A stretch of DNA of 64,000 bases from the NCBI GenBank assembly GCA_002293125.1, contig DBCR01000018.1:10602-74601 (forward strand), given 5' to 3'. The notes below the pieces were generated by a model. That model did no database searches, had not been told where the DNA came from, and saw only the letters and a list, made by a program, of their open reading frames with translations. Below are positions 8,533 through 49,071 of this stretch, one piece after another. Position 1 is the stretch's first letter. Every line of letters begins with the position of its first letter. This stretch comes from Opitutia bacterium UBA953 (GTDB lineage: Bacteria; Verrucomicrobiota; Verrucomicrobiia; Opitutales; UBA953). Made by a program: the position numbers and the translations under genes.

Positions 8533-8621
8533 GGGCGTTTTAAGGCCATCTTAAGGTTCGGGCTTGTGTTTTTGGCCTTAAAATCGAATAGTGAACGACC
8601 CTTAAGTACGAGGGGCACCCT

Positions 8622-9056
8622 ATGGAAAAGACTCTCATCATCCTTAAGCCCGACTGCATGGAGCGCCGTCTCTGCGGCACCGTCCTCGCCCGCTTCGAAG
8701 CCGCCGGCTTCGAAATCCAGGCCAGCAAGATGACCCGCCTCACGTCGGCTCAGCTTCGCGAGCATTACGCCCACGTCGCCGACAAGCCCTTCTACCCGGA
8801 GATCGAGGCCTTCATGTCCTCCCGTCCGGTGATCGTCGCCGTCCTCGTCGGCGACAACGTCATCTCCCGCGTCCGCGAACTTCTCGGACCGACTAATTCT
8901 AAAGTGGCTCCTAAGGGCACCATCCGTGGCGATTTCGGCACCGAGATGATGCGTAATGTTTGCCACGCCTCCGACAGCCCCGCTGCCGCGGATGCCGAGG
9001 TTCGCCGTTTCTTCCGTCCTGACGAAGTTTTCGCCCCCGAGGCGAGCCGAGTCTAA
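8622..9056 (+). CDS. ndk: Nucleoside diphosphate kinase
   Basis: MEKTLIILKPD N-terminus, GTIRGDFG, and active-site His context RNVCHASDS. Confidence 0.95.
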   Translation: MEKTLIILKPDCMERRLCGTVLARFEAAGFEIQASKMTRLTSAQLREHYAHVADKPFYPEIEAFMSSRPVIVAVLVGDNVISRVRELLGPTNSKVAPKGTIRGDFGTEMMRNVCHASDSPAAADAEVRRFFRPDEVFAPEASRV

Positions 9057-9072
9057 GCGAAAGCATAGCAAA

Positions 9073-15267: not shown

Positions 15268-17052
15268 TTGTTCTCCTCTCTGAGGAACAATCTCCCTACC
15301 CTATCTTCCGCTCCGGATTTCCCCACTGTGACGACCGCCGACGACTACGTCATCCAATTCATTCAGGACAAGGGACTGGTGTCTCTTGCCGATGTGACCG
15401 AGGCCCGCGCCGCCATTGAGCCCGTCCCGGATGGCCAGAATGCCGACACCCTCGCCATCGCCAAGTTGGTCGAGACTAACAAGGTCGCGTGGACTAAGAT
15501 TACGTCCGCCCTCAGCCAGGAGTTCGACATGGAAATCGTGGATGTCGCGCAGGTCACGCCCTCCGATGACATCCTGAAGCTCATCAGCCGCGAACAGGCC
15601 GAGAAACATAACATCCTGCCGCTCCAGATGGACGGTACCGAGCTGCTCTTGGCTATCTCGGATCCGCTCGACACGGAGACCATCGATTCCATCTCGCGCG
15701 TGCTCAAGCTCGCCATCAACCCCAAGCTGGCTCCACCGGACGCCCTAAAGGAAGCCATTTCACGCTGTTATAACGGCGGTCAGATTGGCGGGTCCAATTC
15801 CTATTCCGACATCCTGGGCAAGGGCGGCGACGACGGCCTATCCGTCGAGCTCCCGCAAGGCGGCGACGTCAAGGAAGACGACGCGCCGATCATTCGTTAC
15901 GTCAACTCGCTCATCGTCGACGCCATCCGTCGCAAGGCTTCAGACATCCACCTCGAGCCTCTGGAGAAGCGTTTCCGAGTCCGTTTCCGTGTCGACGGCG
16001 TCCTGCAAGAGATGAAGGGCCCGCCCAAGCGTCTCCAACCTTCGATCATCTCCCGACTCAAGCTCATGGCGGAAGTCTCGCTCGCCGAGAAGCGGATTCC
16101 GCAGGACGGACGCATCCAGGCCCGCACCGGTGGACGCGACATCGACTTGCGCGTCTCGGTGCTCCCGACCGTCTACGGCGAATCGATCGTCATGCGAATC
16201 CTGGACAAGGAGGGCCTCAAGCTGGGCCTCCCGGAGCTGGGTTTCTTCGCCGACGACCAAGCCAAGTTCCAGGGCCTGATCTCGGGCTCGGATGGCGTCT
16301 TCCTTGTCACCGGTCCGACCGGTTCGGGTAAGTCCACCACGCTTTATTCGGCCCTGAACTACATCAACAAGCCGGACCGGAAGATCATCACCGTCGAAGA
16401 TCCCGTCGAATACCAGATGGCCGGCATTAACCAGGTGCAGGTGAAGCGCGATGTCGGGATGACCTTCGCCGCCGCCCTGCGTGCCATGCTTCGACAGGCG
16501 CCTAACATCGTGATGATCGGTGAAATCCGAGATTTAGAGACGGCGGAAATCGCGGTCAACGCGGCCCTCACCGGCCACATGGTGTTCTCGACCCTGCACA
16601 CCAATGACTCCGTCAGCTCCGTCACCCGACTCGTCGATATCGGCGTCAAGCCCTTCCTCGTGTCCGCTGCCTTGCGCGGCGCGCTCGCGCAGCGGCTGGT
16701 GCGTCGCAATTGCCAGGCTTGCGCGGCCCCTTATAAGCCGACCACGAAGGAACTTTATTCCATCGGCATGACGGAGCAGGACCTCGCCAGCGCCACGCCC
16801 ATGAAGGGCGCCGGCTGCCCGAAGTGCGGCGAGCGTGGCTACAAGGGCCGTCGCGGCGTCTTCGAGCTTTTTGTCATCACCGAGGAGGTTCAGGAGATGA
16901 TTTACGGCGGCTCCAACCTCGTCGACCTCCGCCGTAAGGCCCGCGAGGCTGGCATGCGCACCATGCGCGAAGACGGCCAGCGTAAGGTCGCCTCGGGCAT
17001 GACCACCATCGAGGAAGTGCTCGGTGCCACCGTCGCCGACGACATCATCTGA
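15268..17052 (+). CDS. Type IV pilus assembly / T2SS ATPase, PilB/GspE family (copy 1)
   Basis: N-terminal T2SSE_N-like domain, Walker [13 protein letters not shown], and tetracysteine CQAC...[17 protein letters not shown]. The start is a TTG and is uncertain. Confidence 0.85.
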
Positions 17053-17056
17053 CCCT

Positions 17057-18130
17057 ATGGCCTACGAGATGAACCAGTTGCTGGAGGCCATGATCGAGAA
17101 TGGCGCTTCGGACTTGCACATCCGCGTGGGCCGTTCCCCCAGTCTCCGCGTCAACGGCGAAATCATCTCCATCGACGGGCCGGCCCTGACGGAGGCCGAG
17201 GCCAAGACTATGGTCATGGCCATCGTTCCGCCGGGTCAGGTCGCGCGCCTTGCGGCCGATGGCGGCTGCGATTTCGCCTTCTCCTTCCGCGACAAGATAC
17301 GCCTGCGCGTCAACGCGTTCCGCGGCCTCGGCGGCCATGGCATGGTGCTGCGCTTGCTGCCGTCGGCGATGTTCACGCTCGAGCAGCTGCGGCTTCCGCC
17401 GGTCATCAAGGATATCCTCACCCGCTCGCGCGGCCTGGTGCTCGTGACTGGCCCCACCGGCTCCGGTAAGTCGACCACGCTCGCCTCGATGATCAACTGG
17501 ATCAACGAGAACGAACAAGGGCATATCATCACGATCGAGGATCCGATCGAGTACACCCATGCCCATAAGAACTGCCTGATCACGCAGCGCGAAGTCGGGG
17601 CTGACCTGCCTTCCTTCGCGGAAGGGGTACGTTCCGCGCTCCGTCAGGACCCCGACGTCATCCTCATCGGCGAGATGCGCGACCTCGAGACCATCGAGGC
17701 CGCCGTCACCGCCGCGGAGACGGGTCACCTCGTCCTTGGCACGCTCCACACCTCTGGCGCCACGCGCACGGTCGACCGTATCATCGACGCTTTCCCGGCG
17801 TCCGCCCGCGATCAGATTCGCGCCCAGCTTTCCACTTCCCTTAGCGCCGTGATCTCGCAGTGCCTGCTGCATACCACCGACGACAAGCGGGTCGCGGCGT
17901 TCGAGATCATGCTGCGCACCGACGCCATCGGCGCGAAGATTCGCGAGGGCAAGACCTACCAGCTGCTCACCGATATCGAGACCGGTGGCGCCCGCGGCAT
18001 GCGCACCCTCGACAGCGATCTGCTCGCTCTTTTCTTCCAAGGCACCGTGTCCGAGGAGGTAGTCTTCAATTACTGCCAGAGCCCCGAGGCCATGCGCGAG
18101 CGCATGCGCGGCGGGGCCGCGGCGCGTTAA
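17057..18130 (+). CDS. pilT: Twitching-motility retraction ATPase PilT
   Basis: ASDLHIRVG, Walker [23 protein letters not shown] and [11 protein letters not shown] (AIRNLIRE-like). It is short (357 aa) and lacks the N-terminal GspE domain. ATG at 17057. Confidence 0.9.
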
Positions 18131-18161
18131 AACCCTCCCCAACTCCTTTCCCTCCATTCCC

Positions 18162-19844
18162 ATGTTCGACGACCACAGTGACGTGATCCGTGATATCGCC
18201 CTCGAGGCCGGCCTCGTGACGCCTGCCCAGGCCGAGGAGATCTGGGAGTCCCACGCCACTACCGGAAAGTCGTTCAGCGATAGCCTCATGGACGCCGGGC
18301 TGGCTGACCGCCCGACCATCTTGCAGGCCATCGCCGACCACCTTCAGGTCCAGTTCTATTCCGCCGTGCCGGCCGACCCGGGTGAAGCCCTGACCAAGCT
18401 GCTGAAGGCGCCGCAGGCCCACAAGTATGTCGTGCTGCCCGTCGCTGACGAGGCCGGCAAACTCACGCTCCTTGCGAAGGACCCTTTCAATTCGTCCGTC
18501 ATCAGCGAACTCAGCTTCATCCTGCAGAAGGATATCGAACTGGCCGTGGCCGACCCGGCGCAGGTCGAGGCCGCCGTCACGCGGGTCTACGGCGAAGCCA
18601 CTTCCGCTTCGATGGAAGAGCTGCTGGGCGAATTCGGCGAAGTCGATGCCGCCGCCGTCACCGACGAGGATGTCACCAAGCAGGCCAGCCAAGCTCCGAT
18701 CATCCGCTTCGTCGACCTCGTGCTCCAGGAGGGCGTCAAGGCCAAGGCGTCGGACATCCACTTCGAGCCGTTTGAGCACGAGTTCCGCATCCGTCTCCGC
18801 ATTGACGGCTCGCTGTACGAAATGGCACCTCCGCCCAAGAACCTTGCCTCGGCCGTCATCGCCCGTGTCAAAGTCCTCTCTTCGCTCAACATCGCCGAGC
18901 GACGCGTGCCGCAGGACGGTCGCATCAAGACCACCATCAGCGGCCGCCAGATCGACCTGCGCGTGTCGACGTTGCCGACCCAGTTTGGTGAATCCGTGGT
19001 GCTCCGAATCCTAGATAAGACCGTCGTCAACTTGAGCCTCGAGGCTCTCTCGATGCACGACGATATCAAGGAAGGCATCCGCGCGATGGTCAGCCGACCT
19101 AACGGCATCTTTATCGTCACCGGCCCGACTGGTTCCGGCAAGACGACCACGCTTTACTCGGCGCTCCGCGAGGTGAACACCGAGGACGTCAAGATCCTTA
19201 CCGCCGAAGACCCCGTCGAATACGAAGTCGAAGGCATCATGCAGGTGCCGATCAATCACCAAGTCGGGCTGACCTTCGCCGCCGCGCTCCGCTCGTTTCT
19301 CCGACAGGATCCGGACACCATCATGGTCGGTGAAATCCGAGATCTCGAGACCGCGCAAATCGCCGTGCAGGCCTCGCTGACCGGCCACGTCGTACTTTCC
19401 ACGCTCCACACCAACGATGCCCCCGGCGCCGTCACCCGACTCATCGACATGGGGCTGGAGCCGTTCCTCATCTCGGCGTCCCTCGAGGGCGTACTGGCCC
19501 AGCGTCTGCTCCGTCGCGTCTGCAAGACCTGCCGCACGGCCTACGAGCCAGATAAGGACGTCGTCAATATGCTCGATGTCGATGCGCTCGAGATTGCTAA
19601 CAAGAAATTCTACTACGGCAAAGGCTGCGCCGACTGTAATCGCTCCGGTTACAAGGGCCGCCAAGGCCTCTTCGAACTGATGACGATCACCGACCAGCTC
19701 CGCTCGCTCATCACCCAGAAGGCCCCGACGCTCGTCCTCAAGCAGAAGGCGATCGAGTCGGGGATGCGTCCGCTCCGTGAAGACGGCCTGCGCTGCATCT
19801 TCGACGGCCATACCTCCATCGAGGAAGTCCTTAAGTATACCTAA
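18162..19844 (+). CDS. Type IV pilus assembly / T2SS ATPase, PilB/GspE family (copy 2)
   Basis: Second full-length paralogue. It has a T2SSE_N-like N-terminus, Walker [13 protein letters not shown], and tetracysteine CKTC...[17 protein letters not shown]. Confidence 0.85.
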
Positions 19845-19868
19845 CTTTCACAACCCCCCACTACTCCC

Positions 19869-21113
19869 ATGCCCGACTATAAGTACACCGCCATCGACCG
19901 CAACGGGGCGCAGACCTCCGGCAAGATCGAAGCCACCAATGACGAACAGGCCCGCCAGAAGCTCATGGCGAAGGGCCTCATGGTCACCACCCTCGCCAAC
20001 GACGCCGGCTCGGCGAAGCCCGCCGCCGCCCAGGCCGCCCCGGCCAAGGGTGGCTTCACGTTCGGCTCCAAGGTCAGCCAGAATGACGTGACGATCATGA
20101 CGCGTCAGCTGGCGACGCTCATCGTCGCCGGCCTGCCGCTCTTGCGCGCCCTTGAGCTTATCACCAAGCAGGAGCGTAATCCGGCCTTCAAGGTCATCCT
20201 CGCCAATGTCGCCGACAGCGTCTCCCAAGGTAACAATCTTTCCGAGGCCATGCAGGCTCATCCGAAGGTCTTCGACAAGCTCTTCGTCAACATGATCCGC
20301 GCCGGCGAGGCGGGGGGCGTGCTCGACAAGGTCCTCGACCGTCTTGCGAAGTTCCGCGAAAAGGCCGAGCGCATCCAGAAAAAGGTCAAGTCCGCGCTGG
20401 TCTACCCGGGTGTCGTCATGTCCGTGGCCATCATCATCGTCTATATCCTCATGGTGAAGGTCGTCCCTTCTTTCCAGAAGCTCCTCGACGGCCAAAAGAC
20501 GGAGATGCCACCGCTGACGAAGTTGGTCATCGGCATCTCCCAGCTGCTCACGGTCTACTGGTGGGCCACCCCCATCCTCGTGTTCGGTATCTACTTCTTG
20601 CTGAAGCAGTGGTTGTCGACCGAGAAGGGCAAGGAACTCTTCGATCGCATGATTTTCCGTCTGCCCAAGGTCGGGGCCTTCGTGCAAATCGTCTCGGTCT
20701 CGCGGTTCGCCCGCACGTTTGGTACGCTCATGGCTTCCGGGGTGCCGATCTTGCAGTCCATCTCCATCACGCGTGACACGCTCGATAATGTCGTCATCGC
20801 GAAGTCGCTGGAGCGCGTGCATGACCGCGTCCGCGACGGTGAGCCGCTCTCCGTGCCGCTCGAGCAATCCGGCGTCTTCCCGCAGATGGTGACCTCCATG
20901 ATCCAGGTCGGAGAAGAGACGGGCCAGCTGCCTGAGATGCTCAATCGCGTCGCGGACATCTATGACGAAGAAGTGGACAACGCCGTGACCGCGCTGACTT
21001 CCATCATCGAACCGGTGCTCATCGTCTTCCTCGCCGTCGTTGTCGGTGCCATCGTGCTCGCGATGTTCCTCCCGCTCATCGCTCTCATCACCAAGATGAC
21101 CGGCGGCGGCTGA
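19869..21113 (+). CDS. pilC: Type IV pilus / T2SS platform protein, PilC/GspF family
   Basis: 414 aa with a duplicated GspF-type cytoplasmic domain (FVNMIRAGEAGG and MIQVGEETGQLPEML) and three hydrophobic helices. Confidence 0.85.
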   Translation: MPDYKYTAIDRNGAQTSGKIEATNDEQARQKLMAKGLMVTTLANDAGSAKPAAAQAAPAKGGFTFGSKVSQNDVTIMTRQLATLIVAGLPLLRALELITKQERNPAFKVILANVADSVSQGNNLSEAMQAHPKVFDKLFVNMIRAGEAGGVLDKVLDRLAKFREKAERIQKKVKSALVYPGVVMSVAIIIVYILMVKVVPSFQKLLDGQKTEMPPLTKLVIGISQLLTVYWWATPILVFGIYFLLKQWLSTEKGKELFDRMIFRLPKVGAFVQIVSVSRFARTFGTLMASGVPILQSISITRDTLDNVVIAKSLERVHDRVRDGEPLSVPLEQSGVFPQMVTSMIQVGEETGQLPEMLNRVADIYDEEVDNAVTALTSIIEPVLIVFLAVVVGAIVLAMFLPLIALITKMTGGG

Positions 21114-21201: not shown

Positions 21202-21240
21202 AGGCGGCTTGCATACCCCTATGCAAGCCGCCTGTTTTTT
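21202..21240. terminator. Strong bidirectional intrinsic terminator
   Basis: AGGCGGCTTGCAT-ACCCCT-ATGCAAGCCGCCT perfect 13-bp stem. It is flanked by AAAAAG on the left and GTTTTTT on the right, so it has a U-tract on either strand. Confidence 0.8.
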
Positions 21241-21381: not shown

Positions 21382-21459
21382 TGGGTGCAGGGGTAGGATT
21401 TGAACCTACGACCTTCAGGTTATGAGCCTGACGAGCTAACCGGGCTGCTCCACCCTGCA
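21382..21459 (-). tRNA. tRNA-Met (CAT), initiator-like
   Basis: The reverse complement reads TGCAGGGTGGAGCAGCCCGGTTAGCTCGTCAGGCTCATAACCTGAAGGTCGTAGGTTCAAATCCTACCCCTGCACCCA. The D-arm, T-arm and variable region closely match the bacterial tRNA-fMet pattern, the anticodon loop is CTCATAA, and CCA is encoded. Confidence 0.85.
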
Positions 21460-21596: not shown

Positions 21597-23576
21597 ATGA
21601 CTGAAGAAACTCCCACGCCCCATCCCGGCGAAATCCCTCCAGCTGACCAGGTCAAGGTCGACGCGGACTCCATCGTATCCAAGCGCCGGAAACTCAACTT
21701 CTGGCAACGTATCGGCGCCAGTGGCCTTTCCGTCTCCTTGGCGATCCACGTCTTATTGGTCTTCATCGCAGCCGCCTTCGTCGTCTCGACGGTCACCGAC
21801 AGCGGCAAGAAGGATCCGAATACCTTCGCCACCGGCGCCGGCGGCGGTTCCGGCGGCGAGCGCGTGAAGAGCACCGAGCGCAAGGTCAAACCGAAGAACG
21901 TCAAGTCCTTGGCCAAGACGACGACCCGTATCACTTCCAAGAGCGCCTCGGCTTCCATCGCGCTCCCCGACATGCCGAGCTCCGCCTCCGCTTCCTCGAT
22001 GATCTCGGGGGCGATGGCCGGCGGTGCGTCCAAGGGCTTTGGCGGCGGCGCCGGCGGCGGCATCGGCACCGGCAAGGGCATGGGCTCCGGTGGCGGCAAG
22101 AATTTCGTAGCCCGCCCGGTCATGGGAGCGAACATCTTCTCGCAGCGCCTGGCGGTCTACTTCGACGCCTCGGCCTCGATGCTTCCTTATCTCGACCGCG
22201 TCGAAGCGGAGATCCGCGATAAGTTCCCGGATGCGGACGTCTTCCTCAGCAACGGCGTGTTCATCGACGTGCATGATAACGAGATCGTCGGCGGCGACAA
22301 ATTCAAGGGTGCGCCGTTCCTGAATCGTCCCACCGGCGGCGGCTCGAAGAAGAACGCCAAGGGTGAGCTCGTCCCCACCGAGACGAATCCGGCTAAGCTC
22401 ACCACCCAGGGCCGCGCGATCCTCAAGAAGTACGGCAGTAATTTCAAGACGGGCTCCGTCGGTGGTTGGATCGACATCCTTAAGGATGACCGCACCTACG
22501 ATGCGCTGATCGTCTTCTCTGACTTCCAGGACGGCGTCCGCCAGATCCGCACCAAGGCCATCGGTAACGTGTCAGCCTACAAGCCCGACAAGGGCATGCG
22601 CGCCGACCCGCCCGTCGTCTTCTCCGATCGCACCAATCAGGGCGGCGGCTTTGCCCGTTCGGTCACCCTCATCGCCAGCGGCGGCGCCTCCGGCCAGCCG
22701 GTCGTGCAGTGTAAGGAAACCACGGGTCTGATCGTCGGCATGGTTGCCCTCGGCTCGGGTATCCCTCCGGGCACGACGGTCATCGAGATCAAGGATAACG
22801 TCAGTTTCACTCTCAGCAAGCCCCTCACCGCCGCCCCCTCTGGTCGCGTCGTCTGTAATAACGGCGGCGACAAGCGCTTCCCCGAAGAGAAGAAGTGGGA
22901 AGACGAGTGGGAGAAGGCCTTCGCCGGTGCCCGCGAGAACAAAGGGCCTCGCCTCTATCTCATCAGCACCTCCCGTGCTTACGGTAACAAGCCCGGGACC
23001 ATCCTTCAGCGCTGCGTCTCCGCCTCCGACGGCAGCGCGATCATGGTCAAGTTTGGTAACGCCAAGAAGGGCGCCAATACGATCGATGACCTGCATAACT
23101 ATGACGACCTTTACGTCGGAATGCCGGTGAGCGGCCGCGGGCTTCCCGACGGCGTCACGATTGTGGCGATGCCGACCACCAAGGAGATCATCGACCCCGA
23201 GGATCCCGAGAAGAAGCGCAAGAAGCGTGTCATCGACAAGCAACTCGCCATCTCCGCGCCGGTGCTCGAAGATTCCACTAACGCGGTCTTCGCCTTCACC
23301 CCGCTCATTCAGGCGGTCGGTACGCTCGCCAAGGATTCCAAAGTCATCGACGATGTCTCTGGCTCGATCGACCTCAAGACAGGCATGATCGTCGTGGACG
23401 GCCGCTTCCCCTCGGCCACCAAGGTGATCTCGGTGACCCCGAACAAGGCCGCCGCCGGATTCTTTACGGTTGAGATGTCGGCTCCCGCCAGCGCCACTGC
23501 CGCCAACGCGGTCCTACGTTTCCGTCCGGCTGCTTCGACCACGGGCAACGCCCGCGGCGCCGCTCCGACTCGCTAA
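21597..23576 (+). CDS. Membrane-anchored protein: TonB-like SxxxH N-terminal helix, Gly-rich linker, MIDAS-like (DxSxS) core domain, three C-terminal repeats (paralogue 1)
   Basis: 659 aa. The TM helix GLSVSLAIHVLLVFIAAAFVV carries S-x3-H. The core has RLAVYFDASASM, VEAEIRDKFPDADVF, GSVGGWID and YDALIVFSDFQDG blocks. It is paralogous to the next two genes. Confidence 0.75.
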   Translation: MTEETPTPHPGEIPPADQVKVDADSIVSKRRKLNFWQRIGASGLSVSLAIHVLLVFIAAAFVVSTVTDSGKKDPNTFATGAGGGSGGERVKSTERKVKPKNVKSLAKTTTRITSKSASASIALPDMPSSASASSMISGAMAGGASKGFGGGAGGGIGTGKGMGSGGGKNFVARPVMGANIFSQRLAVYFDASASMLPYLDRVEAEIRDKFPDADVFLSNGVFIDVHDNEIVGGDKFKGAPFLNRPTGGGSKKNAKGELVPTETNPAKLTTQGRAILKKYGSNFKTGSVGGWIDILKDDRTYDALIVFSDFQDGVRQIRTKAIGNVSAYKPDKGMRADPPVVFSDRTNQGGGFARSVTLIASGGASGQPVVQCKETTGLIVGMVALGSGIPPGTTVIEIKDNVSFTLSKPLTAAPSGRVVCNNGGDKRFPEEKKWEDEWEKAFAGARENKGPRLYLISTSRAYGNKPGTILQRCVSASDGSAIMVKFGNAKKGANTIDDLHNYDDLYVGMPVSGRGLPDGVTIVAMPTTKEIIDPEDPEKKRKKRVIDKQLAISAPVLEDSTNAVFAFTPLIQAVGTLAKDSKVIDDVSGSIDLKTGMIVVDGRFPSATKVISVTPNKAAAGFFTVEMSAPASATAANAVLRFRPAASTTGNARGAAPTR

Positions 23577-23598
23577 GTTTCGGTCCATGGGGCCAGAA

Positions 23599-23626
23599 GG
23601 CGAAGCCACCTGGCTTCGCCCTTTTT
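23599..23626 (+). terminator. Intrinsic terminator after paralogue 1
   Basis: GGCGAAGC-CACCTG-GCTTCGCC hairpin followed by CTTTTTG. Confidence 0.65.
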
Positions 23627-23715
23627 GTCCTTAGGGCATGGTCCCCATGCGACAAAAACAAAATATGATTCCCATGTCCCTCGCCCGCTCGCACTATTGA
23701 GGCAACCCCACGAAG

Positions 23716-24471
23716 ATGAATCCCCCGAAGGTTTTCACGGTCCTTGCGCTGGTCTTGCTCTCCGCCTTCGCCCACGCGGCCAAGACCGGCGGCAAGTCGG
23801 GGGGCGGTGACGAGCCGGCTCCGCGTATCGCGGTCTACCTGGATTGCTCCAGCTCGATGGTGCCCTACCTCGAGGCCGTCGAGGCCGAGGTGCGTAAGCA
23901 GTTTCCCGACGCCGACGTGTTCAAGGTGCCCGCCATCAAGGTCTGGGTCGATGGCGCCGTCGTCCGCGGTGGCGCGGCCACCGTGCTGCCGCATAAGCCC
24001 GCGGCCGGGCCGACGGTCAGCCTGGACACGAGCCGTCTTAGCGCGACGGGCAAGGAGATCCTGGCCCGCTATGCAGGTAATTTTGAAGTAGGTTCCGTCG
24101 GGGCCTGGGTCGATATCCTGCGCACCGAGAAGCGTTACGACGCGCTGGTGATCTTCTCCGACTTCAACGACCAGGTTTTACAGGTTCGCCTCGGCAGGCC
24201 GCCGCTGCGGACTTACGTCGACGATGCCGGCCAGCGCTCCCTTCCCGAAACGGAGATCAAGGATGACCGCACCGTCGCCGAGAAGGCTTGGGAAGACGTC
24301 TGGGTCGGTTCCTTCGATCTCGCGAATGCGGGCAAGGCGCCGGCGCTCTATCTTTTCTCCACGCGTAATCCGGCCAGTCGGATCCTGCAGAAATCGGCCG
24401 ATGTCTCGGGCGGAAAGTTCACGCTCATCGACTGGCTTCGTCCCGACGGTCCGCCTAAGCCGAGCAACTGA
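23716..24471 (+). CDS. Secreted MIDAS-like (DxSxS) domain protein (paralogue 2)
   Basis: 251 aa with a signal peptide (MNPPKVFTVLALVLLSAFAHA-AK). Core blocks are RIAVYLDCSSSM, VEAEVRKQFPDADVF, GSVGAWVD and YDALVIFSDFNDQ. Confidence 0.75.
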   Translation: MNPPKVFTVLALVLLSAFAHAAKTGGKSGGGDEPAPRIAVYLDCSSSMVPYLEAVEAEVRKQFPDADVFKVPAIKVWVDGAVVRGGAATVLPHKPAAGPTVSLDTSRLSATGKEILARYAGNFEVGSVGAWVDILRTEKRYDALVIFSDFNDQVLQVRLGRPPLRTYVDDAGQRSLPETEIKDDRTVAEKAWEDVWVGSFDLANAGKAPALYLFSTRNPASRILQKSADVSGGKFTLIDWLRPDGPPKPSN

Positions 24472-24564
24472 GGCTAGTCCCTAGGGTCATTCTGCGGTCG
24501 GGTTGCAGGGTGAACCTGAGTGCTCGCTCGCTTGATGCAGGCCATGGGTTCGTAGGCTTGGGGG

Positions 24565-25650
24565 ATGGATCAACCCAAGCCTTTCGTGGCCGGTCGGCGA
24601 CGCGCTTCGGCACGTTCATGGCGCGGCTTCCTGCTCTCCCTGGCGATGCATAGCTTGCTCGTCGTGGTCGCTTGTTGGGTGGTGTTCCACGAGCCGGTGT
24701 CCCCGACGAAGCAGGAGTTCACTGCGCATGCGGTGGCGGGGGGCAAGTCGGGTGGCCCGTCGCAGACGCACCCCATTACCCGCAAGCCTAAGGTGCTCAT
24801 GCCGCAGAAGCGGCTGACTTCGAAGTCTGCCAGCGCGACCTTGGCGCTGCCGCCCATGAAGGCGATGACTCCGGAGATGGGGTTAGCTGGACTGTCCGGT
24901 GGACAAGGGAAGGGCGGCTTCGGGCGCGGGCAGGGTGCCTTCGGCGGCAATGGCCTGGGCGCTGGTTTAGGTAACCGTGCCGGGTTTGTCGGCCGTCCGG
25001 TGATGGGCGCCTTCATCCGCGCCCAACGTGTCGCGGTCTATCTCGATTGCTCCGGTTCGATGCGCTCCTATTTGCCGCGGGTCGAAGCGGAGATCCGCAA
25101 GCAGTTTCCCGATGCTGATGTGTTTCGTTTCGATGGCGCCCGGGTCGTCGGCTTGGGGGACGTGGTGGTCTTCGGCCGCCGGTTCCACGGTAACGCCCCG
25201 CGTCTGCGCGAAGGCCCGACGCAGACCGCGCTCGAGACGCTGACGCCGAACGGCCGCTCCGTACAGGCCAAGGTCCGCGTTGCCTGCGAGAAGGGCTCGT
25301 TGGGCGCGTGGATGGATCGACTATTGGCGGAATCCTACGATGCCTTGGTGGTCTTCTCCGATTTTCAGGACGGAGTCCGTTTGTATGAGTCGAAAAAAGG
25401 TGAGCCGAAGATGGTCTATTCGGATAGTTCCTATCACAAGGTCGGCGGCGTCCAGAAAGGGCACACCCGTTGGCAGCGGGAGTGGCTGGAGGCCTTTGCC
25501 AAGGCGCCGAGCGGAGCCGGTCCGAGGCTTTACCTCTACACTGTCCAAAAGGAGCCGCAGGCTTTCCTTCAGGCCTGCGTAGCCGCGTCGGGAGGAGCCT
25601 CAACTTCGGTATCCTGGCTGAAAAATGGCGGGCGCAAGGCGTCGCCTTGA
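24565..25650 (+). CDS. Membrane-anchored protein: TonB-like SxxxH N-terminal helix, Gly-rich linker, MIDAS-like (DxSxS) core domain (paralogue 3)
   Basis: 361 aa. The TM helix FLLSLAMHSLLVVVACWVVF carries S-x3-H. Core blocks are RVAVYLDCSGSM, VEAEIRKQFPDADVF, GSLGAWMD and YDALVVFSDFQDG. Confidence 0.75.
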   Translation: MDQPKPFVAGRRRASARSWRGFLLSLAMHSLLVVVACWVVFHEPVSPTKQEFTAHAVAGGKSGGPSQTHPITRKPKVLMPQKRLTSKSASATLALPPMKAMTPEMGLAGLSGGQGKGGFGRGQGAFGGNGLGAGLGNRAGFVGRPVMGAFIRAQRVAVYLDCSGSMRSYLPRVEAEIRKQFPDADVFRFDGARVVGLGDVVVFGRRFHGNAPRLREGPTQTALETLTPNGRSVQAKVRVACEKGSLGAWMDRLLAESYDALVVFSDFQDGVRLYESKKGEPKMVYSDSSYHKVGGVQKGHTRWQREWLEAFAKAPSGAGPRLYLYTVQKEPQAFLQACVAASGGASTSVSWLKNGGRKASP

Positions 25651-25687
25651 CGGTTGCACCCTTCGGCGGGACGGCTTGGATAGGCGC

Positions 25688-26107
25688 ATGGTCCCCTTCA
25701 CGGCAGAATACCGCGCCAATTTCTCCGACACCGACGCCGCGGGCATCGTGCATTTCTCCACGATCTTCTTCTGGGTCGAGGCGACCGAAGAGGCCCTCTT
25801 CCGTCATCTCAAGCTACCGTTCCTCCGCACCGAGGGCGCCAAGCTCACCGGCTTCCCCCGCGTGCGCGTCGAGTGCGACTTCCTTTCGCCGATCTACCGT
25901 GAGGACGTCGTGATCGTCGCGCTGACACCGATCGAGATCGGCGACAAGAAACTCGTCTGGGGCTTCACCGCCGCCGTCGGCGAACGCGCCGTCGCCAAGG
26001 GTGCCCTGACCACTGTCTACGCCTGGCGCGAAGCCCAGGGTCCCATGTCGGCCGCCCTCGTGCCGCTCGACATCAAGACGGCCCTGCAGAATCATTTCGG
26101 CGCGTGA
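25688..26107 (+). CDS. Acyl-CoA thioesterase, 4HBT/YbgC-like hotdog fold
   Basis: N-terminus YRANFSDTDAAGIVHFSTIFFWVEATEEALFRHL matches the 4HBT catalytic Asp region. About 139 aa from the ATG at 25688. Confidence 0.7.
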   Translation: MVPFTAEYRANFSDTDAAGIVHFSTIFFWVEATEEALFRHLKLPFLRTEGAKLTGFPRVRVECDFLSPIYREDVVIVALTPIEIGDKKLVWGFTAAVGERAVAKGALTTVYAWREAQGPMSAALVPLDIKTALQNHFGA

Positions 26108-27504: not shown

Positions 27505-28440
27505 ATGGAAGACACCCCTATCATCCACAACTTCTCGCACGAGGCCTTCGGCTCCCGTTTCTGGGTGCGCATCGCCTCCGAAGACGGCGTCTATGCGCGC
27601 AATGCCGCCGAGGCGCTTTTCCAGCTGCTCGACGACCTCGATTTCCAGACCGACCGTCGCCACGACAGCGGACCGGTCGCTTCGATCAACCAGATGCCTG
27701 AAGGGGCGATGGTCGCCACTTCCGAACACGTGCAGGCTCTCTGGAATTTCTCGAAGGACGTGAGCGCCGACACCAACAAGGCGTTCGACGCCACCGCCGG
27801 GGCTTTGTTCGACTATTGGAAGAACCGCGGCGACATGCCTTTAAATCCTGACGATCAAGCTTGGACGCAGATCATGTCGGCCTACCGTGAAGGCGAATTC
27901 CGCCTTGATGGTTGCGAACTCCACTGCGTCAAGTTCGGCATCGCCGTCGACTTTGGCGCCATCGTCCGCGGCTACGCACTGGATCGCATGGCCGACATGC
28001 TCGAGAGCAGCTGGGGCATCCACCGCGCCTTGCTCATGGCCTCCGGCAGCGTGACCCTTGCGCTCGATCCGCCCGGCGAATCGGCCGGCTGGCGCATCGG
28101 CGTCGGCGCCCAGTCCGAGATCAAGCTCTGCCGATTCGCCATGGCCAGTAAGACGGCCGACACGACGCACGGTAATCTTGTCGACCCTCGCACGGGTCAG
28201 GTGATTTCCTTGCCCGGTCCGGTGCGTGCCATCGCGACATCTGCCCTCGAGGCAGAGGGATTGGCGATGGCCGGCGCTGTCCTCAATGCCTCCGAGGCCG
28301 AAGAATTCGTCAATCGCGGTTGCAGTCGCGGGCTCTGGCTGCCGGACGGCACCAAGCTGGGTTCGGTGACGTATTTCGAGGTGACCGATCGTTCGGTGCC
28401 CGAAGCTACGACGACTTCCTCCGAAGAGTCGGCTACCTGA
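27505..28440 (+). CDS. FAD:protein FMN transferase (ApbE family)
   Basis: FDATAGALFDYW and DFGAIVRGYALDRMADML match ApbE family blocks. 311 aa. Confidence 0.65.
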   Translation: MEDTPIIHNFSHEAFGSRFWVRIASEDGVYARNAAEALFQLLDDLDFQTDRRHDSGPVASINQMPEGAMVATSEHVQALWNFSKDVSADTNKAFDATAGALFDYWKNRGDMPLNPDDQAWTQIMSAYREGEFRLDGCELHCVKFGIAVDFGAIVRGYALDRMADMLESSWGIHRALLMASGSVTLALDPPGESAGWRIGVGAQSEIKLCRFAMASKTADTTHGNLVDPRTGQVISLPGPVRAIATSALEAEGLAMAGAVLNASEAEEFVNRGCSRGLWLPDGTKLGSVTYFEVTDRSVPEATTTSSEESAT

Positions 28441-42572: not shown

Positions 42573-42719
42573 TTACTTTGAAGCGTTGTCCGGATCCGGC
42601 TTGGCCGCGGCTTTCTTGGCCGGGGTGGCTTTTTCGGCGGGCGCCTGTTCGATCACGATGATGCAGCCCGAGAGGGTGAGGCTGGCGAGCGCGAGGGCGG
42701 CGGCGAGGGCGGTCTTCAT
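42573..42719 (-). CDS. Small lipoprotein with Lys/Ala/Pro-rich tail
   Basis: MKTALAAALALASLTLSGC lipobox, then IIVIEQAPAEKATPAKKAAAKPDPDNASK. 48 aa from the ATG at 42719. Confidence 0.5.
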   Translation of the reverse strand: MKTALAAALALASLTLSGCIIVIEQAPAEKATPAKKAAAKPDPDNASK

Positions 42720-42766
42720 GTCAGGAATAATAGGGTGTGGACTGGCTGGGTAAACCCGCAAAACAG

Positions 42767-42811: not shown

Positions 42812-43255
42812 TTACTCCGTGTCGGACACCGCGAACGTGACGTTCGTGATGTTCGCCTTGGCGAGGCAGTCGAGGACGTTGATCACGCGCTCGTAGCGGG
42901 CGTTCTCTTCGGCCTGGACCGTGATGAGTAGCTTCGTCTTGGACTGCTCGGCAGCTTCGCCCAGTTGCTTCATCTGGTTATAGAGGTTCTCGAGGAGTTT
43001 GTCGCCGGACGCGCCGACCGGGTCTTCGTTAAGGGTGATTTCTCCGGTCTCGCTGATGCCGATGGTGACTTCGTCGGGAAGCTCGGTCTCTTTGGAAGTC
43101 TCGGCGTTGCCGGGGAGGGTGGTCTTCAGCTCATGTTCGACCTTCACGGCGCCGGCCATGACCATGAAGAAGAGCATGATCACGAAGACCACGTCGATCA
43201 TGGGAGCAATCTGGAAGCCAGGATTTGCGTCGGGCAGTTGTGGGGCTTGTCTCAT
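42812..43255 (-). CDS. exbD: Biopolymer transport protein ExbD/TolR (copy 2)
   Basis: FQIAPMIDVVFVIMLFFMV N-terminal TM with the conserved Asp. 147 aa. Confidence 0.85.
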   Translation of the reverse strand: MRQAPQLPDANPGFQIAPMIDVVFVIMLFFMVMAGAVKVEHELKTTLPGNAETSKETELPDEVTIGISETGEITLNEDPVGASGDKLLENLYNQMKQLGEAAEQSKTKLLITVQAEENARYERVINVLDCLAKANITNVTFAVSDTE

Positions 43256-43258
43256 GGC

Positions 43259-43699
43259 TTATTCTTCTTTGTTAAGGCCGGAGAAGGCGATGTTGTCGAT
43301 ACCGGCTTCGGCGCCCCATTCGAGGGCCTTGGAGATGTATTTCGCATGGCACTCCTTATCGGCGCGGATCAGCAGGCGATACTTCTCATTCGTGCCCTTA
43401 CGATCGGAGAGTTCCTTCGCGATGCCTTCCTTGTCGTTCGGGTCGATCTCGCGATCGTCGATCTTGTACTTGGCCTGGCCCGTGGTCTTGTCCCACGAGA
43501 TATTGATCAGTCCCGCAGCGGCCTTATCGTCGCGCTTGATGCCGTTGGAAGCGACCGGCAGGGAGATGTTCTTGTCCACCCTGAGCACCTGCGCCGAGGT
43601 GATGGACATGAAGAAGATGAGCAGCACCAAGAGCACGTCGATCATCGGCGCGACCTGGAACTCCGGCTCCCCTTCTCCGCCTCCTCCTCCGCCTGCCAT
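43259..43699 (-). CDS. exbD: Biopolymer transport protein ExbD/TolR (copy 1)
   Basis: FQVAPMIDVLLVLLIFFM N-terminal TM with the conserved Asp. 146 aa. Confidence 0.85.
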   Translation of the reverse strand: MAGGGGGGEGEPEFQVAPMIDVLLVLLIFFMSITSAQVLRVDKNISLPVASNGIKRDDKAAAGLINISWDKTTGQAKYKIDDREIDPNDKEGIAKELSDRKGTNEKYRLLIRADKECHAKYISKALEWGAEAGIDNIAFSGLNKEE

Positions 43700-43731
43700 G
43701 GCTGTGTTGTTTGGTTAGGGGTGGAAAGGGC

Positions 43732-44520
43732 TTACGACTGGACGTTCGAGGACGTGTTCCAATCGGGCTTGGAGGCGTAGATTTCCTCGTCGCCGACCTT
43801 ACGACCTTCGATTTCTTCGTAGGGGAAGGCGCGGAACAGGCCGGTCACGATCTCGGTGATGTCGTGGACGCCCTTGTTGATGCGGTTCGCGAGCAAGTAG
43901 TAGGACATGAACGCCGGGATAGCGACGGCCAGGCCAGTGCCAGTCGCCACGAGCACTTCGCCGATCGCGCCAGAGAGCTTGGAGGGGTCGCCCACGCCGG
44001 AGGTGCCGAGGGTTTCGAAAGCGGCCATCATGCCGGTCACGGTGCCGACCAGGCCGATCATCGGGGTGCAGACGCCGATCACGGAGAGGTAGGAGGAACG
44101 GCCCTTAAGCTCGGCGTTGACGCGAGTGATCTCGGAGATGATCGCTTCTTCGGTCATGGTCTTGCCATCTGGGGTGAAGGCGACACCGGCGCGGACGACG
44201 TCAGCGAGGGGGGAGCCGGCGGACTTGGCGAAGGCGTAGGCACCGACGTAGTCACCCTTTTTGAAGAGCTCGCGGAGCTGAGTGACATGGTCGACCGGGT
44301 AGAGTTTACTAGCGCTCGTGCGCATGTAGCCGTCGACGATGAACCAGACCATCGCCACGGAGCAGGCGGTGAGCGGGTACATGACCCAACCACCTTCGAT
44401 GAAGATGTCTATGAGGGTCTTCTTGTGGGCGCCACCGGCGGCTTCCTGGGCCGAGGCTGCGATGGTCATCAGGCCGAGGAGGACGGCGCTGAAGGAGGTA
44501 TTACGGAGGTTCATCTTCAT
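43732..44520 (-). CDS. exbB: MotA/TolQ/ExbB proton-channel protein
   Basis: PMIGLVGTVTGMMAAF and GEVLVATGTGLAVAIPA channel helices. The N-terminus is signal-like. I chose the ATG at 44520 over the longer ORF-track start. Confidence 0.85.
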   Translation of the reverse strand: MKMNLRNTSFSAVLLGLMTIAASAQEAAGGAHKKTLIDIFIEGGWVMYPLTACSVAMVWFIVDGYMRTSASKLYPVDHVTQLRELFKKGDYVGAYAFAKSAGSPLADVVRAGVAFTPDGKTMTEEAIISEITRVNAELKGRSSYLSVIGVCTPMIGLVGTVTGMMAAFETLGTSGVGDPSKLSGAIGEVLVATGTGLAVAIPAFMSYYLLANRINKGVHDITEIVTGLFRAFPYEEIEGRKVGDEEIYASKPDWNTSSNVQS

Positions 44521-44572
44521 GATGATGGGGTGTAGGTTGGTTTTAGGTGAGGTTTTGGAAAGGGGCAAGGAC

Positions 44573-45589
44573 TCACTTGTTACCTTCGACCTTCTCTTCG
44601 GCGGCAAGTTTAGGCTTGGCCATGATGACGCCGTCCGGGAGGGGGCCGCCGGCAGCGATCTTCTTTTGATCGGCCTCGGCCTTGGCACGTTCTTCCTTGG
44701 GAAGCATCTTCTTGGCTTCTTCGGCTTCTTTGGAGACCGGGTAGGAGACGATGATGTCGTAGAGGTAGCGGTTGGCGACGGTCTCGAGCTTCTGGTCGCG
44801 AAGGGCGGGGCTGTCCATTCCGCGGAACGACCGGGCGGCGCCCAGCATGGCCTTCGGTACGATTTCGGACTCGGAGCCGAAGAAGACTGGTACGCGGAGG
44901 TAGGTGGTCATCGCGGCTTCGTACTTCTTGGAGGCGAAGAGCGAGTTGCCCTTCACGAGGTGGAGGCGGGCCTGGAGTTCGGCTGTATCCACCTTGGCCA
45001 GGAGTTCCGTGGACTCCTTTATGACCGCCTCGTGTTCGCCTTTGCGGGCGCGCTGCATCAGGCGGGCGAGCTGGATCTGGGTGGCTACCTCGGGGAGCTT
45101 GGCGGCCTCTTCCTTCTCGAAGGCGGTGAGGAATGATTCCGTGGCGGCGTCGTTCTCGAGGCGGTCGAGGGCGTCGAGCTTGACGATGGACGCACGGGCC
45201 CACCAGGAGCCAGGGACGTTCTTGATCGGTTCGAAGAACTTCAGCACGGCTTCAACGTTGTCGAGGGCCTTGGCCGGTTCGCCCCGGCTGACGTTGGCCT
45301 GGGCGTCCGTGAGGCGGGAGGGCATCGGCCAGATCACTTCGGTGACTTCGGATAGCTTGCGGGTGAGGGTCACCTCGATGCCGCCGGAGTTGCTGACGCG
45401 GACGATCTCTCCCTTGATGACGTTGATCGTGCCTTTCTTGGCATCGACGATCGGTTTCGGCGGGATGGAGCTGTCCATCTTGAACGGGTCGTTGATCTCC
45501 CAGCGTTCGCCTTTGAAGACGAAGGTCTGTGCCGGCGAGGAGGCGGCGGCGAGGAGCGCGAGGGCAGGGAGGAAGAAGGAGAGACGCAT
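44573..45589 (-). CDS. Secreted helical-repeat (TPR-like) protein
   Basis: Signal peptide MRLSFFLPALALLAAASSPAQT. The middle is helical and the C-terminal tail is Lys/Glu/Ala-rich. It lies immediately upstream of exbB. Confidence 0.6.
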   Translation of the reverse strand: MRLSFFLPALALLAAASSPAQTFVFKGERWEINDPFKMDSSIPPKPIVDAKKGTINVIKGEIVRVSNSGGIEVTLTRKLSEVTEVIWPMPSRLTDAQANVSRGEPAKALDNVEAVLKFFEPIKNVPGSWWARASIVKLDALDRLENDAATESFLTAFEKEEAAKLPEVATQIQLARLMQRARKGEHEAVIKESTELLAKVDTAELQARLHLVKGNSLFASKKYEAAMTTYLRVPVFFGSESEIVPKAMLGAARSFRGMDSPALRDQKLETVANRYLYDIIVSYPVSKEAEEAKKMLPKEERAKAEADQKKIAAGGPLPDGVIMAKPKLAAEEKVEGNK

Positions 45590-45594
45590 GGTGA

Positions 45595-48500: not shown

Positions 48501-48933
48501 TGGAATAGGCTTCGATGAGCAGAAGCTCGGCGGTGCCGCGGCGATTGTCGGTATCAGAGAGGAAGTCCTCCGTGCCCTTGGGGAACTTGTCGAGGAAGGC
48601 GGTCAGCTCGGTTTCGGCCCGCGGCCAATCCTTGATGAAGAAATGACAGAGGGATTTTTGGAAGGAGACGACGGCCTTGAGCTTCGGTTCGACGTCGACG
48701 GCTTTGGCGTCGAGATCTTCGAAAAGTGCGAGGGCCTCCCGGTACTTCTTTTCTTCGAGGTTCTTGATGGCATCCTTGTAAAGGAGGGACAGCGGGTCCT
48801 CCTGTGGCTTCTGCGCGGTCGGCAGCGGGCGAGCCTGCGCCTTCAAGTCACTGGTGACGGGGGTCAGGGCAATGAGGACGGCGAGCAAGGCGGCCTTGGC
48901 CAATTTATAGGTGCGGGACTCTTTGATAAGCAT
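45595..48933 (-). CDS. Very large secreted TPR-repeat protein
   Basis: About 1112 aa from the ATG at 48933 (MLIKESRTYKLAKAALLAVLIALTPV). Dozens of TPR-like A/Y/L-patterned helical hairpins run along its whole length. Confidence 0.7.
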   Translation of the reverse strand: MLIKESRTYKLAKAALLAVLIALTPVTSDLKAQARPLPTAQKPQEDPLSLLYKDAIKNLEEKKYREALALFEDLDAKAVDVEPKLKAVVSFQKSLCHFFIKDWPRAETELTAFLDKFPKGTEDFLSDTDNRRGTAELLLIEAYSKQGKWELALARLEKIRTNSLARPEERVSAYTLSAQIIVDRAKSSPDDVKKAAYAQALTLLKQATADGINTPERREAAYKLVDMYTKLGLTKEATQLKNEIDAKSTGSPVEVVRSNFQRLEIGDARFSAAETAADENFRADFYRQALTNYQGTLRRANLSSSFGRTIEAKQTEVDTLTKNFPKPNPEQAANLEKTKQEVAQFKKIQEEFNANKDYDAFISYRIGLCLLELKRPWEAHVAFLDIFENSPGFSRISGAYYYHILALRRIGRNNEAQAKCKEFISKFPKDEQVSAIALILGDISQEREEFPEAIGHYKWVLANVKTLTPEVVEEIDFRIAACLFSQVDWAPAQKAFEEFLKKHERSPVRQQVLYMNALCSFFQGKYKETKVDFDKYEQEYPKGQFIPDVRYRQAIVKFGTSPRDIPGTIKICEDWLKDYSKDNTDEVMSQVPEVYTLIGDANIALADEIDKKVKAADLDVRLNAKTPDKDKFVEIKTKLEKEKEAVTNKAIDAYEAAAKNARTNPQALEFVLGELRKLLPGRGEHKRMRDLFREIFDWNHNDPKAMTYLYEVIRSTERMGDMPEFAAESEKVRKNFSAQLAAARKAVDTLERKPGITQPEIDVAKASVRKLSAELEAELAKVEVKRQTSIADQKKRALKILSDAVSESINDRTQEGTEKLIVFLAEKIARKVKRVKPGAKPEPGAYTSEDAEKELVKLLRLEDHRNSLVAQARGFFALGQLAVFTREPEKTAANYAKIAAIYKAEELNPTILGLVGDSLLAKGDDKKAADYFGYILEHSRSSEYADYGFAGLAEIAYANKKYAEALSLCNEAIDNNILMSKELDLRFTRARALAELAKYKEAKDEFEEIAKTKEWRGEKTAASLYWLGLMAERQATDEKGYNEAIAYYRRCFMTWKKYEVWAAKSYFASAKLFATKLNQKDAAKVLLKEMLEKDRIKDTREAQEAKSFLLGL

Positions 48934-49071
48934 CGGTTGAGGGGAGCGTTTAGCTCCGCATCGGGGGTATGTAGAATTAGCCCAGCCGGCCGCAGATTGC
49001 CAAGCAATAAGCCCCTTTTGAACGACATTCATTCGAGGGGGTATGCCCCAGGGGTGGCCCCTGTGAATAAC

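Follow-up and report, generated by a model that had tools for sequence, protein, structure and literature searches.

The 64,000-nucleotide (nt) stretch of contig DBCR01000018.1 from Opitutia bacterium UBA953 that was analysed here (the window) contains three consecutive genes on the plus strand, P1, P2 and P3, which encode proteins of 659, 251 and 361 amino acids (aa). The original prediction described them as paralogues with a shared core. Consistently, the three proteins are 41–43% identical to each other across a core of about 210 aa and share more than 60 invariant columns. The motifs named in that prediction (DASAS, DCSSS, DCSGS, SLAIH and SLAMH) translate exactly at the positions given for them (Table 1), and the blocks GS[VL]G[AG]W, FSDFxD, W..[EV]W, LYL[IFY][ST] and TSKSASA are all present. 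The GC content of the window is 62–66%, and the third-position GC of the three genes (0.75–0.82) is typical for real genes in it. The nearest relatives of the window are freshwater Opitutales genomes, among them 'Opitutae bacterium BS6', which has a gene with 98% identity to P2. The orthologues of P1 (81–98% identity) belong to Verrucomicrobiota/Opitutales, and every one of them is named 'hypothetical'. When P1–P3 were scanned against Pfam and NCBIfam, no match was obtained at E ≤ 1 except for one trace of the NCBIfam model tolA_full, which matches the N-terminal 40 residues of P3 (E = 0.12).

P1 and P3 have a common plan. A basic cytoplasmic segment is followed by one transmembrane (TM) helix, a linker and a C-terminal head. 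The TonB C-terminal domain (TonB_C / TIGR01352), which the original prediction had stated to be missing from P1 and P3, was not detected by Pfam or NCBIfam in any of the three proteins. P2 contains a signal peptide and the head alone.

Table 1. Coordinates of the features at the P1–P3 locus and elsewhere in the window (AF2, AlphaFold2; pLDDT, predicted local distance difference test; ORF, open reading frame)
Feature	Position	Strand	Basis or remark
P1	21597-23576	+	ORF, 659 aa; anchored paralogue with vWA-like head and three beta-rich extra modules
P1 TM anchor, residues 43-67, GLSVSLAIHVLLVFIAAAFVVSTVT	21723-21797	+	helix in AF2 model; S47-x3-H51 = SLAIH at 21735-21749
P1 first linker block, DPNTFATGAGGG	21813-21848	+	candidate stator/motor box; family consensus FaTGAGGG
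P1 second linker block, TRITSKSASASIALPDMP	21924-21977	+	common to P3 and Tichowtungia (TTRMASVSQASFSLPDM)
P1 head, residues 172-485	22110-23051	+	AF2 pLDDT ~80-90
P1 head motif DASAS	22164-22178	+	translation
P1 head motif GSVGGW	22452-22469	+	translation
P1 head motif FSDFQD	22515-22532	+	translation
P1 beta-barrel-like insertion in head, residues 355-421	22659-22859	+	AF2 strands, pLDDT ~80-90
P1 weaker copies of beta module, C-terminal to head	23109-23306, 23379-23546	+	weak internal repeat similarity
P2	23716-24471	+	ORF, 251 aa; signal peptide and head alone
P2 signal peptide, MNPPKVFTVLALVLLSAFAHA, followed by AK	23716-23778	+	Sec-like; cleavage between AHA and A (AxA site), judged by eye
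P2 head motif DCSSS	23842-23856	+	translation
P2 head motif GSVGAW	24091-24108	+	translation
P2 head motif FSDFND	24154-24171	+	translation
P3	24565-25650	+	ORF, 361 aa; anchored paralogue
P3 TM helix	24619-24690	+	SLAMH at 24637-24651
P3 linker	24691-25011	+	second block KRLTSKSASATLALPPM at 24808-24858
P3 head	25012-25635	+	DCSGS 25045-25059, FSDFQD 25354-25371
PilB, PilT, PilB, PilC	15268-21113		upstream of P1
Bidirectional terminator hairpin after pilC	21202-21233		14-bp stem, 8 GC pairs, T runs on both strands
tRNA-Met	21382-21459	-	antisense to triplet; conserved here in 15/15 syntenic loci
4HBT thioesterase	25625-26107	+	Pfam 4HBT; overlaps P3 stop by 26 nt
Polytopic membrane protein, 465 aa	26104-27501	+	4-nt overlap with thioesterase gene
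ApbE	27505-28440	+	Pfam ApbE; 3-nt gap from 465-aa gene
TPR protein, 1145 aa	45595-49032	-	candidate motor cluster
Mul1B/YbgF-like secreted protein, 338 aa	44573-45589	-	Mul1B-family NF052542, below cutoff
tolQ/exbB-like	43732-44688	-	Pfam MotA_ExbB; NCBIfam best tolQ, below cutoff
tolR/exbD-like 1	43259-43699	-	Pfam ExbD; NCBIfam best tolR, below cutoff
tolR/exbD-like 2, different from first	42812-43255	-	Pfam ExbD; NCBIfam best tolR, below cutoff
62-aa ORF downstream of second tolR-like	42573-42761	-	lipoprotein-like signal LTLSGC, Lys/Ala/Pro-rich tail

When 1.84 billion cluster representatives were searched exhaustively with a profile, only 127 relatives passed E ≤ 0.001. Every full-length member has the head at its C-terminus, with one TM helix before it. 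AVY[LMF]DxSxS and FSDFxD are near-universal in these members of a family that diverges to ~35% identity, and this recurrence indicates that the DxSxS motif, on which the original prediction was built, and FSDFxD are not there by chance. The weak tail of the search turned out to be two more subfamilies with the whole architecture and not noise (hhalign to the main family, 99.9% and 99.7% probability). By these profile comparisons, the proteins form a compact superfamily of three subfamilies without a Pfam or NCBIfam model. Tandem pairs are the rule (36 loci). Triplets that include P2 were found in 21 loci of the closest clade only, and P2 is restricted to this clade.

The TM helix of P1 and P3 carries a Ser and a His in S-x3-H spacing. 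This [ST]-x3-H pattern was found in the anchors of 36/37 main-family, 8/8 subfamily-B and 9/29 subfamily-C representatives, and in 7/206 (3.4%) of the unrelated TM segments from the same genomes. The SxxxH anchor proposed in the original prediction is thus conserved in the main family and in subfamily B far above the background. Many subfamily-C anchors without the full pattern still keep the His, and many are without the Ser. His occurs in 6% of the background TM segments and is almost invariant in the anchors of the family. Other conserved anchor positions, counted from this His, are G-8, L+3, A+7, W+10 and V+11.

SHLS-anchored force transducers bearing von Willebrand factor A (vWA) heads were predicted in bacteria of the Planctomycetes-Verrucomicrobia-Chlamydiae (PVC) superphylum by Williams-Jones et al. 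2025 (Mol Biol Evol 42:msaf138, PMC12204202). The published plan comprises an SHLS TM helix, a disordered linker containing a motor box, a domain II (~100 residues) and the vWA head, and the class is spread over Proteobacteria, Planctomycetes, Verrucomicrobia, Bacteroidetes and Rhodothermaeota (PMC12204202). Because this class, Verrucomicrobia included, had already been proposed, the suggestion of the original prediction that the architecture is not a described family does not hold. No other paper combining these terms was returned by a literature search. The type examples are two tandem transducers of Tichowtungia aerotolerans, which are encoded beside TPR-tolQ-tolR-tolR and whose sequences are given in the supplement (PMC12204202); the comparison of the heads described below rests on these two sequences, machine-read from the supplement PDF.

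By BLAST, residues 29–108 of the Tichowtungia protein T2 aligned with residues 45–126 of P1 (32% identity over 85 residues, E = 6e-5). A hidden Markov model (HMM) of the N-terminal module of the family matched both Tichowtungia proteins with E ~5e-7 across the helix, an FxTG box and an LP block. When the same HMM was run on 3,158 background ORFs, the family genes and only one other were found, the latter with E = 0.005. These results show that the anchor-linker module of P1 and P3 is homologous to that of the Tichowtungia transducers.

In P1 and P3 alike, the linker has 117 residues, is rich in Gly/Ser/Ala and stays disordered in the AF2 model; it contains 5 and 10 Pro residues, respectively. 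In the alignment to the N-module HMM, the FxTG block of the linker aligns with the Tichowtungia residues around 55–60, which have been called the stator box (PMC12204202). A second block, R-I/L-T-S-K-S-A-S-A-x-x-A-L-P, lies ~45 residues past the helix and does not coincide with the stator box. PMC12204202 makes no mention of this second block, though the Tichowtungia transducers carry it. P1 and P3 resemble the Tichowtungia transducers in the N-terminal Ser/His TM helix, the disordered linker of ~100–120 residues with a stator/motor box, the second block (TTR[IM]xSxSxASxxLPDM), the vWA-like head in place of the TonB/TolA domain III, the arrangement in tandem heterologous pairs and the occurrence in the PVC superphylum. 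In contrast to Tichowtungia, the P1 and P3 genes do not lie directly downstream of TPR-tolQ-tolR-tolR, and the array has an anchorless secreted paralogue and one paralogue decorated with beta-barrels. With TonB and TolA of E. coli, the two proteins share the S-x3-H anchor helix, a short conserved block right after the helix, a flexible periplasm-spanning region and a globular C-terminal head. Unlike TonB and TolA, they have no TonB_C or TolA domain III, and their spacer is Gly/Ser/Ala-rich and not Pro-rich or helical.

Another kind of membrane-tethered vWA protein, TPH-vWA, has a TolR-like trans-pore helix in which an Asp is conserved and the Ser/His are missing, and is encoded beside tolQ (PMC12204202). 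P1 and P3 resemble the TPH-vWA proteins as membrane-tethered vWA proteins that come in heterologous pairs in Verrucomicrobia. This assignment was rejected, since no Asp was found within the helix in any of the 74 anchors examined.

Some main-family members carry a zinc-ribbon-like CxxC...CxxC or 150–350 residues of probable coiled coil before the anchor. Long cytoplasmic N-terminal extensions were seen in P0387, P0391 and P0404 and in P0374, P0376, P0388–P0390, P0394 and P0398, which suggests that transducers of this kind might receive cytoplasmic inputs.

The head was modelled with AF2. The model of P2 (pLDDT 81, predicted TM-score 0.82) has the order b1-a1-b2-b3-a-b4-(hairpin)-a-b5-a-b6, which is the order of vWA domains; in it, DxSxS ends b1 and FSDFxD ends b4. 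When structures in the PDB were searched with Foldseek, the MDN1 domain with a metal ion-dependent adhesion site (MIDAS; E = 0.022) and the CLCA1 VWA domain (probability 0.80, target TM 0.49–0.50) headed the list, and generic Rossmann folds were among the rest. Against the viral library BFVD, a VWFA protein was on top (E = 1.7e-3, probability 0.96), and 9 of the 17 top named matches are annotated as vWA and 1 as CobT-like. The Foldseek search with full-length P1 was dominated by a small beta-barrel insertion and was uninformative on the head.

For profile comparison by hhalign, E. coli YfbK and four vWA segments from the PDB were combined into a vWA reference profile. The b1-DxSGSM-a1 element of the family matched the b1-DxSGSM-a1 element of vWA with up to 84% probability (subfamily C against YfbK alone). 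A second match, between IYWFSDFxD...LYxxS and ILLATDGD...TLSTFGVG, was obtained with subfamily C (84% probability) and with the whole superfamily (74%). The two matches are colinear, and their register agrees with the DxSGS and TDG elements of vWA (DTSGS and TDG in YfbK). Among Pfam models, VWA_4 matched with E = 0.0064 in 2/42 distant relatives only. PDB sequence searches with the main- and sister-family profiles found no vWA chains, and the nearest match was the uncharacterised protein 3rag_A, at its LDTSASM segment. Canonical vWA proteins were not found in ~1.4 Mb of Opitutales DNA with YfbK as the query.

The Asp, Ser and Ser of DxSxS and the Asp of strand 4 are invariant in P1–P3 and their orthologues, and their conservation is still 90% or more in the distant subfamilies. 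Judged solely by its order and spacing, the Ser in the invariant GSxGxW block is possibly equivalent to the MIDAS Thr. MIDAS vWA and integrin I domains (for example YfbK, BatB 4jdu/3ibs, CLCA1 6pyo, MDN1 8ql1) share with the head the order of strands and helices, the DxSxS and the acidic residue of strand 4. Unlike canonical vWA domains, the head has the extra blocks VEAEIRxxFPDADVF, GSxGxW and WxxxW, a long loop and inserted hairpins, and the TM-scores are 0.3–0.5. From the strand order of the model, the leading Foldseek matches and the register of the hhalign matches, we conclude that the head is a divergent vWA-like domain that keeps the residues at MIDAS positions, in agreement with the original prediction; it may bind metal at a putative MIDAS-like site. 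Compared with the Tichowtungia heads, which match the canonical vWA profile with 47% probability by hhalign and have LDANK at this position, the family head keeps the complete DxSxS...SD. The head of P1 and P3 is thus either another vWA-like domain or one that has strongly diverged, and its metal-site signature is intact.

The head could otherwise be a Rossmann-like enzyme, such as an SGNH/GDSL-type esterase or O-acetyltransferase, with the Ser after strand 1 as the nucleophile. A PatB O-acetyltransferase (E = 0.028) and a GDSL esterase were indeed among the weak PDB matches of Foldseek, and the array is translationally coupled to a thioesterase gene. However, the BFVD matches are overwhelmingly vWA, hhalign finds the two colinear vWA elements, and the catalytic triad of SGNH enzymes is absent because the head has no conserved His. 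An enzymatic head is thus very improbable.

A candidate motor cluster is located at 42812–49032 of the window. It encodes a TPR protein, a Mul1B/YbgF-like secreted protein, a tolQ/exbB-like protein and two tolR/exbD-like proteins, and its composition is that of the motor loci in PMC12204202. For P1 and P3, the likeliest motor would be the one encoded by this TPR-tolQ-tolR-tolR cluster. Next to this cluster there is no gene for TonB, TolA or a vWA transducer; only a 62-aa ORF follows, and then a convergent plus-strand gene. The 62-aa ORF matches no family and may encode a small lipoprotein that acts together with the motor. The Mul1B/YbgF-like protein matched the Mul1B-family model NF052542 with 41 bits (cutoff 75), a weak pointer to the mucin-utilisation locus (MUL) of Akkermansia. 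The mucin-utilisation genes of Akkermansia reportedly combine pili with a periplasmic complex of the TPR/ExbBD type. The link between this MUL and the motor cluster is weak.

Taken together, the evidence leans towards P1 and P3 being inner-membrane, TonB/TolA-like periplasmic force transducers, in which a divergent vWA-like head replaces the TonB C-terminal domain. In the mechanism that we propose, the N-terminal helix, which carries the conserved Ser and His, would dock on the rim of a proton-driven 5:2 motor of the ExbB/TolQ-ExbD/TolR type, and the FxTG block past the helix would engage the periplasmic domain of ExbD/TolR. The flexible linker of 117 residues would allow the head to reach across the periplasm, where the head would grip a partner through a putative MIDAS-like metal site made of D-x-S-x-S, the Asp of FSDFxD and perhaps the GSxGxW Ser. 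The motor would then convert proton flow into a pulling force on the gripped partner, the presumed cargo. The working hypothesis of the original prediction, a metal-dependent module coupled to the proton-motive force, matches the published proposal because the anchor-linker module is homologous to that of transducers encoded beside tolQ-tolR motors; it has the best support of the readings compared, with motor coupling and metal binding as its inferred parts. A head with all the MIDAS-position residues leads to a testable prediction, metal-dependent ligand capture under load. Like tonB, transducers that lie apart from a matching motor cluster in the genome can escape synteny-based searches.

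Compared with PMC12204202, the new elements are a head family with an intact MIDAS, the soluble P2, the barrel-decorated P1, the separation from the motor locus and the superfamily of three subfamilies. The value of these findings is incremental and not transformative until a cargo or a phenotype is found.

A more extended form of this proposal is that P1 and P3 are the missing transducers of the TPR/Mul1B-like/TolQ/TolR-TolR motor, gripping through the MIDAS and working with the pil-like ATPases to handle or import polymers in Verrucomicrobia, at which the mucin-utilisation genes of Akkermansia hint, with P2 as a soluble adaptor or regulator. This extended form is unlikely. If true, it would mean a force-loaded, integrin-like grip in the bacterial periplasm and a third branch of Ton/Tol-type machinery. 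For a long time, to our knowledge, proton-motive energy was known to be carried across the periplasm by TonB and TolA only.

Several observations weigh against P1 and P3 being force transducers with a vWA-like head. For the anchor, the Leu and the second Ser of the E. coli SHLS motif are replaced by Ala (+7) and Val (+11); the same two positions also appear to be Ala/Val in the Tichowtungia transducers. For the head, no match at E ≤ 0.001 was obtained by Foldseek against the PDB or BFVD, the hhalign matches to vWA are short and local only, and the curated vWA models of Pfam and NCBIfam match none of P1–P3. Every single vWA test is thus below threshold, though the tests agree with each other, and the equivalent of the MIDAS Thr is a guess. 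When the family profiles were compared with the Tichowtungia heads by hhalign, the probability was below 2%. The published class is itself computational, being based on AlphaFold 3 models and synteny (PMC12204202). For the motor, the candidate cluster is 17 kb away from the triplet on the opposite strand, and the triplet has no adjacent motor genes. No motor genes were found near the relatives in ten other contexts either (those of P0464, P0447, P0478, P0473, P0430, P0376 and P0391 and non-syntenic Opitutales loci).

The lack of motor genes in all contexts examined, the incomplete SHLS motif and the Ser missing from many subfamily-C members would also fit passive membrane-tethered vWA scaffolds of the BatA/BatB kind, in which the Ser and His serve oligomerisation or another non-motor purpose. 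This explanation is rather unlikely. A His that is rare in TM segments in general would not be expected to be almost invariant in the anchors of scaffolds, and the homology to the motor-adjacent Tichowtungia proteins covers the entire anchor and linker module, beyond the helix. As for the distance from motor genes, tonB itself seldom adjoins exbBD (PMC12204202). Moreover, the Bat-type neighbours MoxR, DUF58 and BatC are absent, and the BatB structures are found by YfbK (E = 4e-9) and missed by the family profiles. A placement in a BatA/BatB-type family, which the original prediction had named as a possible outcome, was rejected on the last two grounds.

The proposal that P1 and P3 are force transducers also has to be compared with a role in the pilus machinery, since a pil block is adjacent to the triplet as the original prediction had pointed out. 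This block encodes two PilB-like ATPases, one PilT-like ATPase and a PilC-like platform and is preceded by ftsH and coaE. Pilin, PilMNOP and secretin genes were not found in the immediate block. P1 and P3 could be accessory proteins of this type IV pilus-like machinery, as tethered vWA adhesins or assembly factors without a link to a Ton/Tol motor. Pilus-associated proteins such as PilY1 are known to contain vWA domains, and across Opitutales the genes pilB-pilT-pilB-pilC keep P1/P3 behind them even where P1 and P3 fall to 45–55% identity. However, the bidirectional terminator and the antisense tRNA-Met separate pilC from P1, which weakens the link to the pilus, and the triplet is predicted from these elements to be a transcription unit separate from the pil block. 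The synteny across Opitutales reaches far past the pil genes, from FtsH to UvrB, and the adjacency is therefore non-specific. Divergence is also much faster in P1 and P3 (45–55% identity) than in PilB (78–88%). Extra single copies of the family elsewhere have neither pil nor motor neighbours. In P1–P3, no PilY1, pilin or PilMNOPQ signatures were found by Pfam and NCBIfam, and a pilus role would leave both the conserved S-x3-H and the homology to motor-adjacent transducers unexplained. The pilus-associated role, offered as an alternative in the original prediction, is thus weakened and seems quite unlikely. PilY1-type adhesins in particular were rejected, as P1–P3 have no Pfam match, no pilin gene lies between pilC and P1, and the terminator and the tRNA lie between the two units.

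P1 differs from its paralogues by three copies of a beta module with the motif xGMxVxGxGhPxGTxV. The confident copy, inserted in the head, resembles the N-terminal barrels of roughly 70 residues in F1/V1-ATPase subunits and phage (tail) proteins, as found by Foldseek (probability up to 1.0, E = 0.013).

P2 has the cleavable signal peptide that the original prediction expected in place of the anchor; it is Sec-like with an AxA site. The S-x3-H in this signal peptide (SAFAH) was rejected as an anchor motif, since it falls within the AxA region and its Ser varies (LLAAFAHA in P0406). P2 would be a recent, anchorless and secreted copy of the head; its probable role is to pair or compete with the anchored heads, or to bind their ligand in advance. 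As a naturally soluble copy of the head, P2 is suited to crystallography, metal-binding assays and ligand fishing. Inside the 139-nt gap between P1 and P2, 23 nt past the P1 stop, there is a terminator-like hairpin (23599–23620; 9-bp stem with 7 GC pairs, then CTTTTTG), which may attenuate the expression of P2 and P3 relative to P1.

Subfamily-C genes also tend to have a second gene of similar size without a Pfam match nearby. Directly upstream of P0447 this gene encodes 276 aa, and a 351-aa Pfam-less gene lies ~2.6 kb from P0478. The examples come from locus L082 (2550–4452) and from the JGI contig that carries P0478. Pairing may therefore be general across the superfamily.

Downstream of P3, the order of the genes for the thioesterase, the 465-aa membrane protein and ApbE is kept across Opitutales. 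A hotdog-fold thioesterase is found beside family genes in two unrelated contexts, which recalls the ybgC gene at the head of tol-pal operons. The second context is that of a single-copy gene of a gut clade (locus L061), which is preceded by a YciA-like thioesterase at 8608–9057; near-identical ORFs of ~149 aa lie ahead of the single-copy gene in L062 and L067. An assignment of the downstream thioesterase to YbgC and tol-pal was rejected: its best NCBIfam matches were YbgC-family models far below cutoff (27 bits, cutoff 68.7), and the thioesterase of the gut clade is YciA-like. The 465-aa membrane protein has no Pfam or NCBIfam match. It is 43–58% identical in L001, L005, L012, L020 and L023, though the flanking genes are 86–99% identical, and this divergence looks like allelic replacement or hypervariability.

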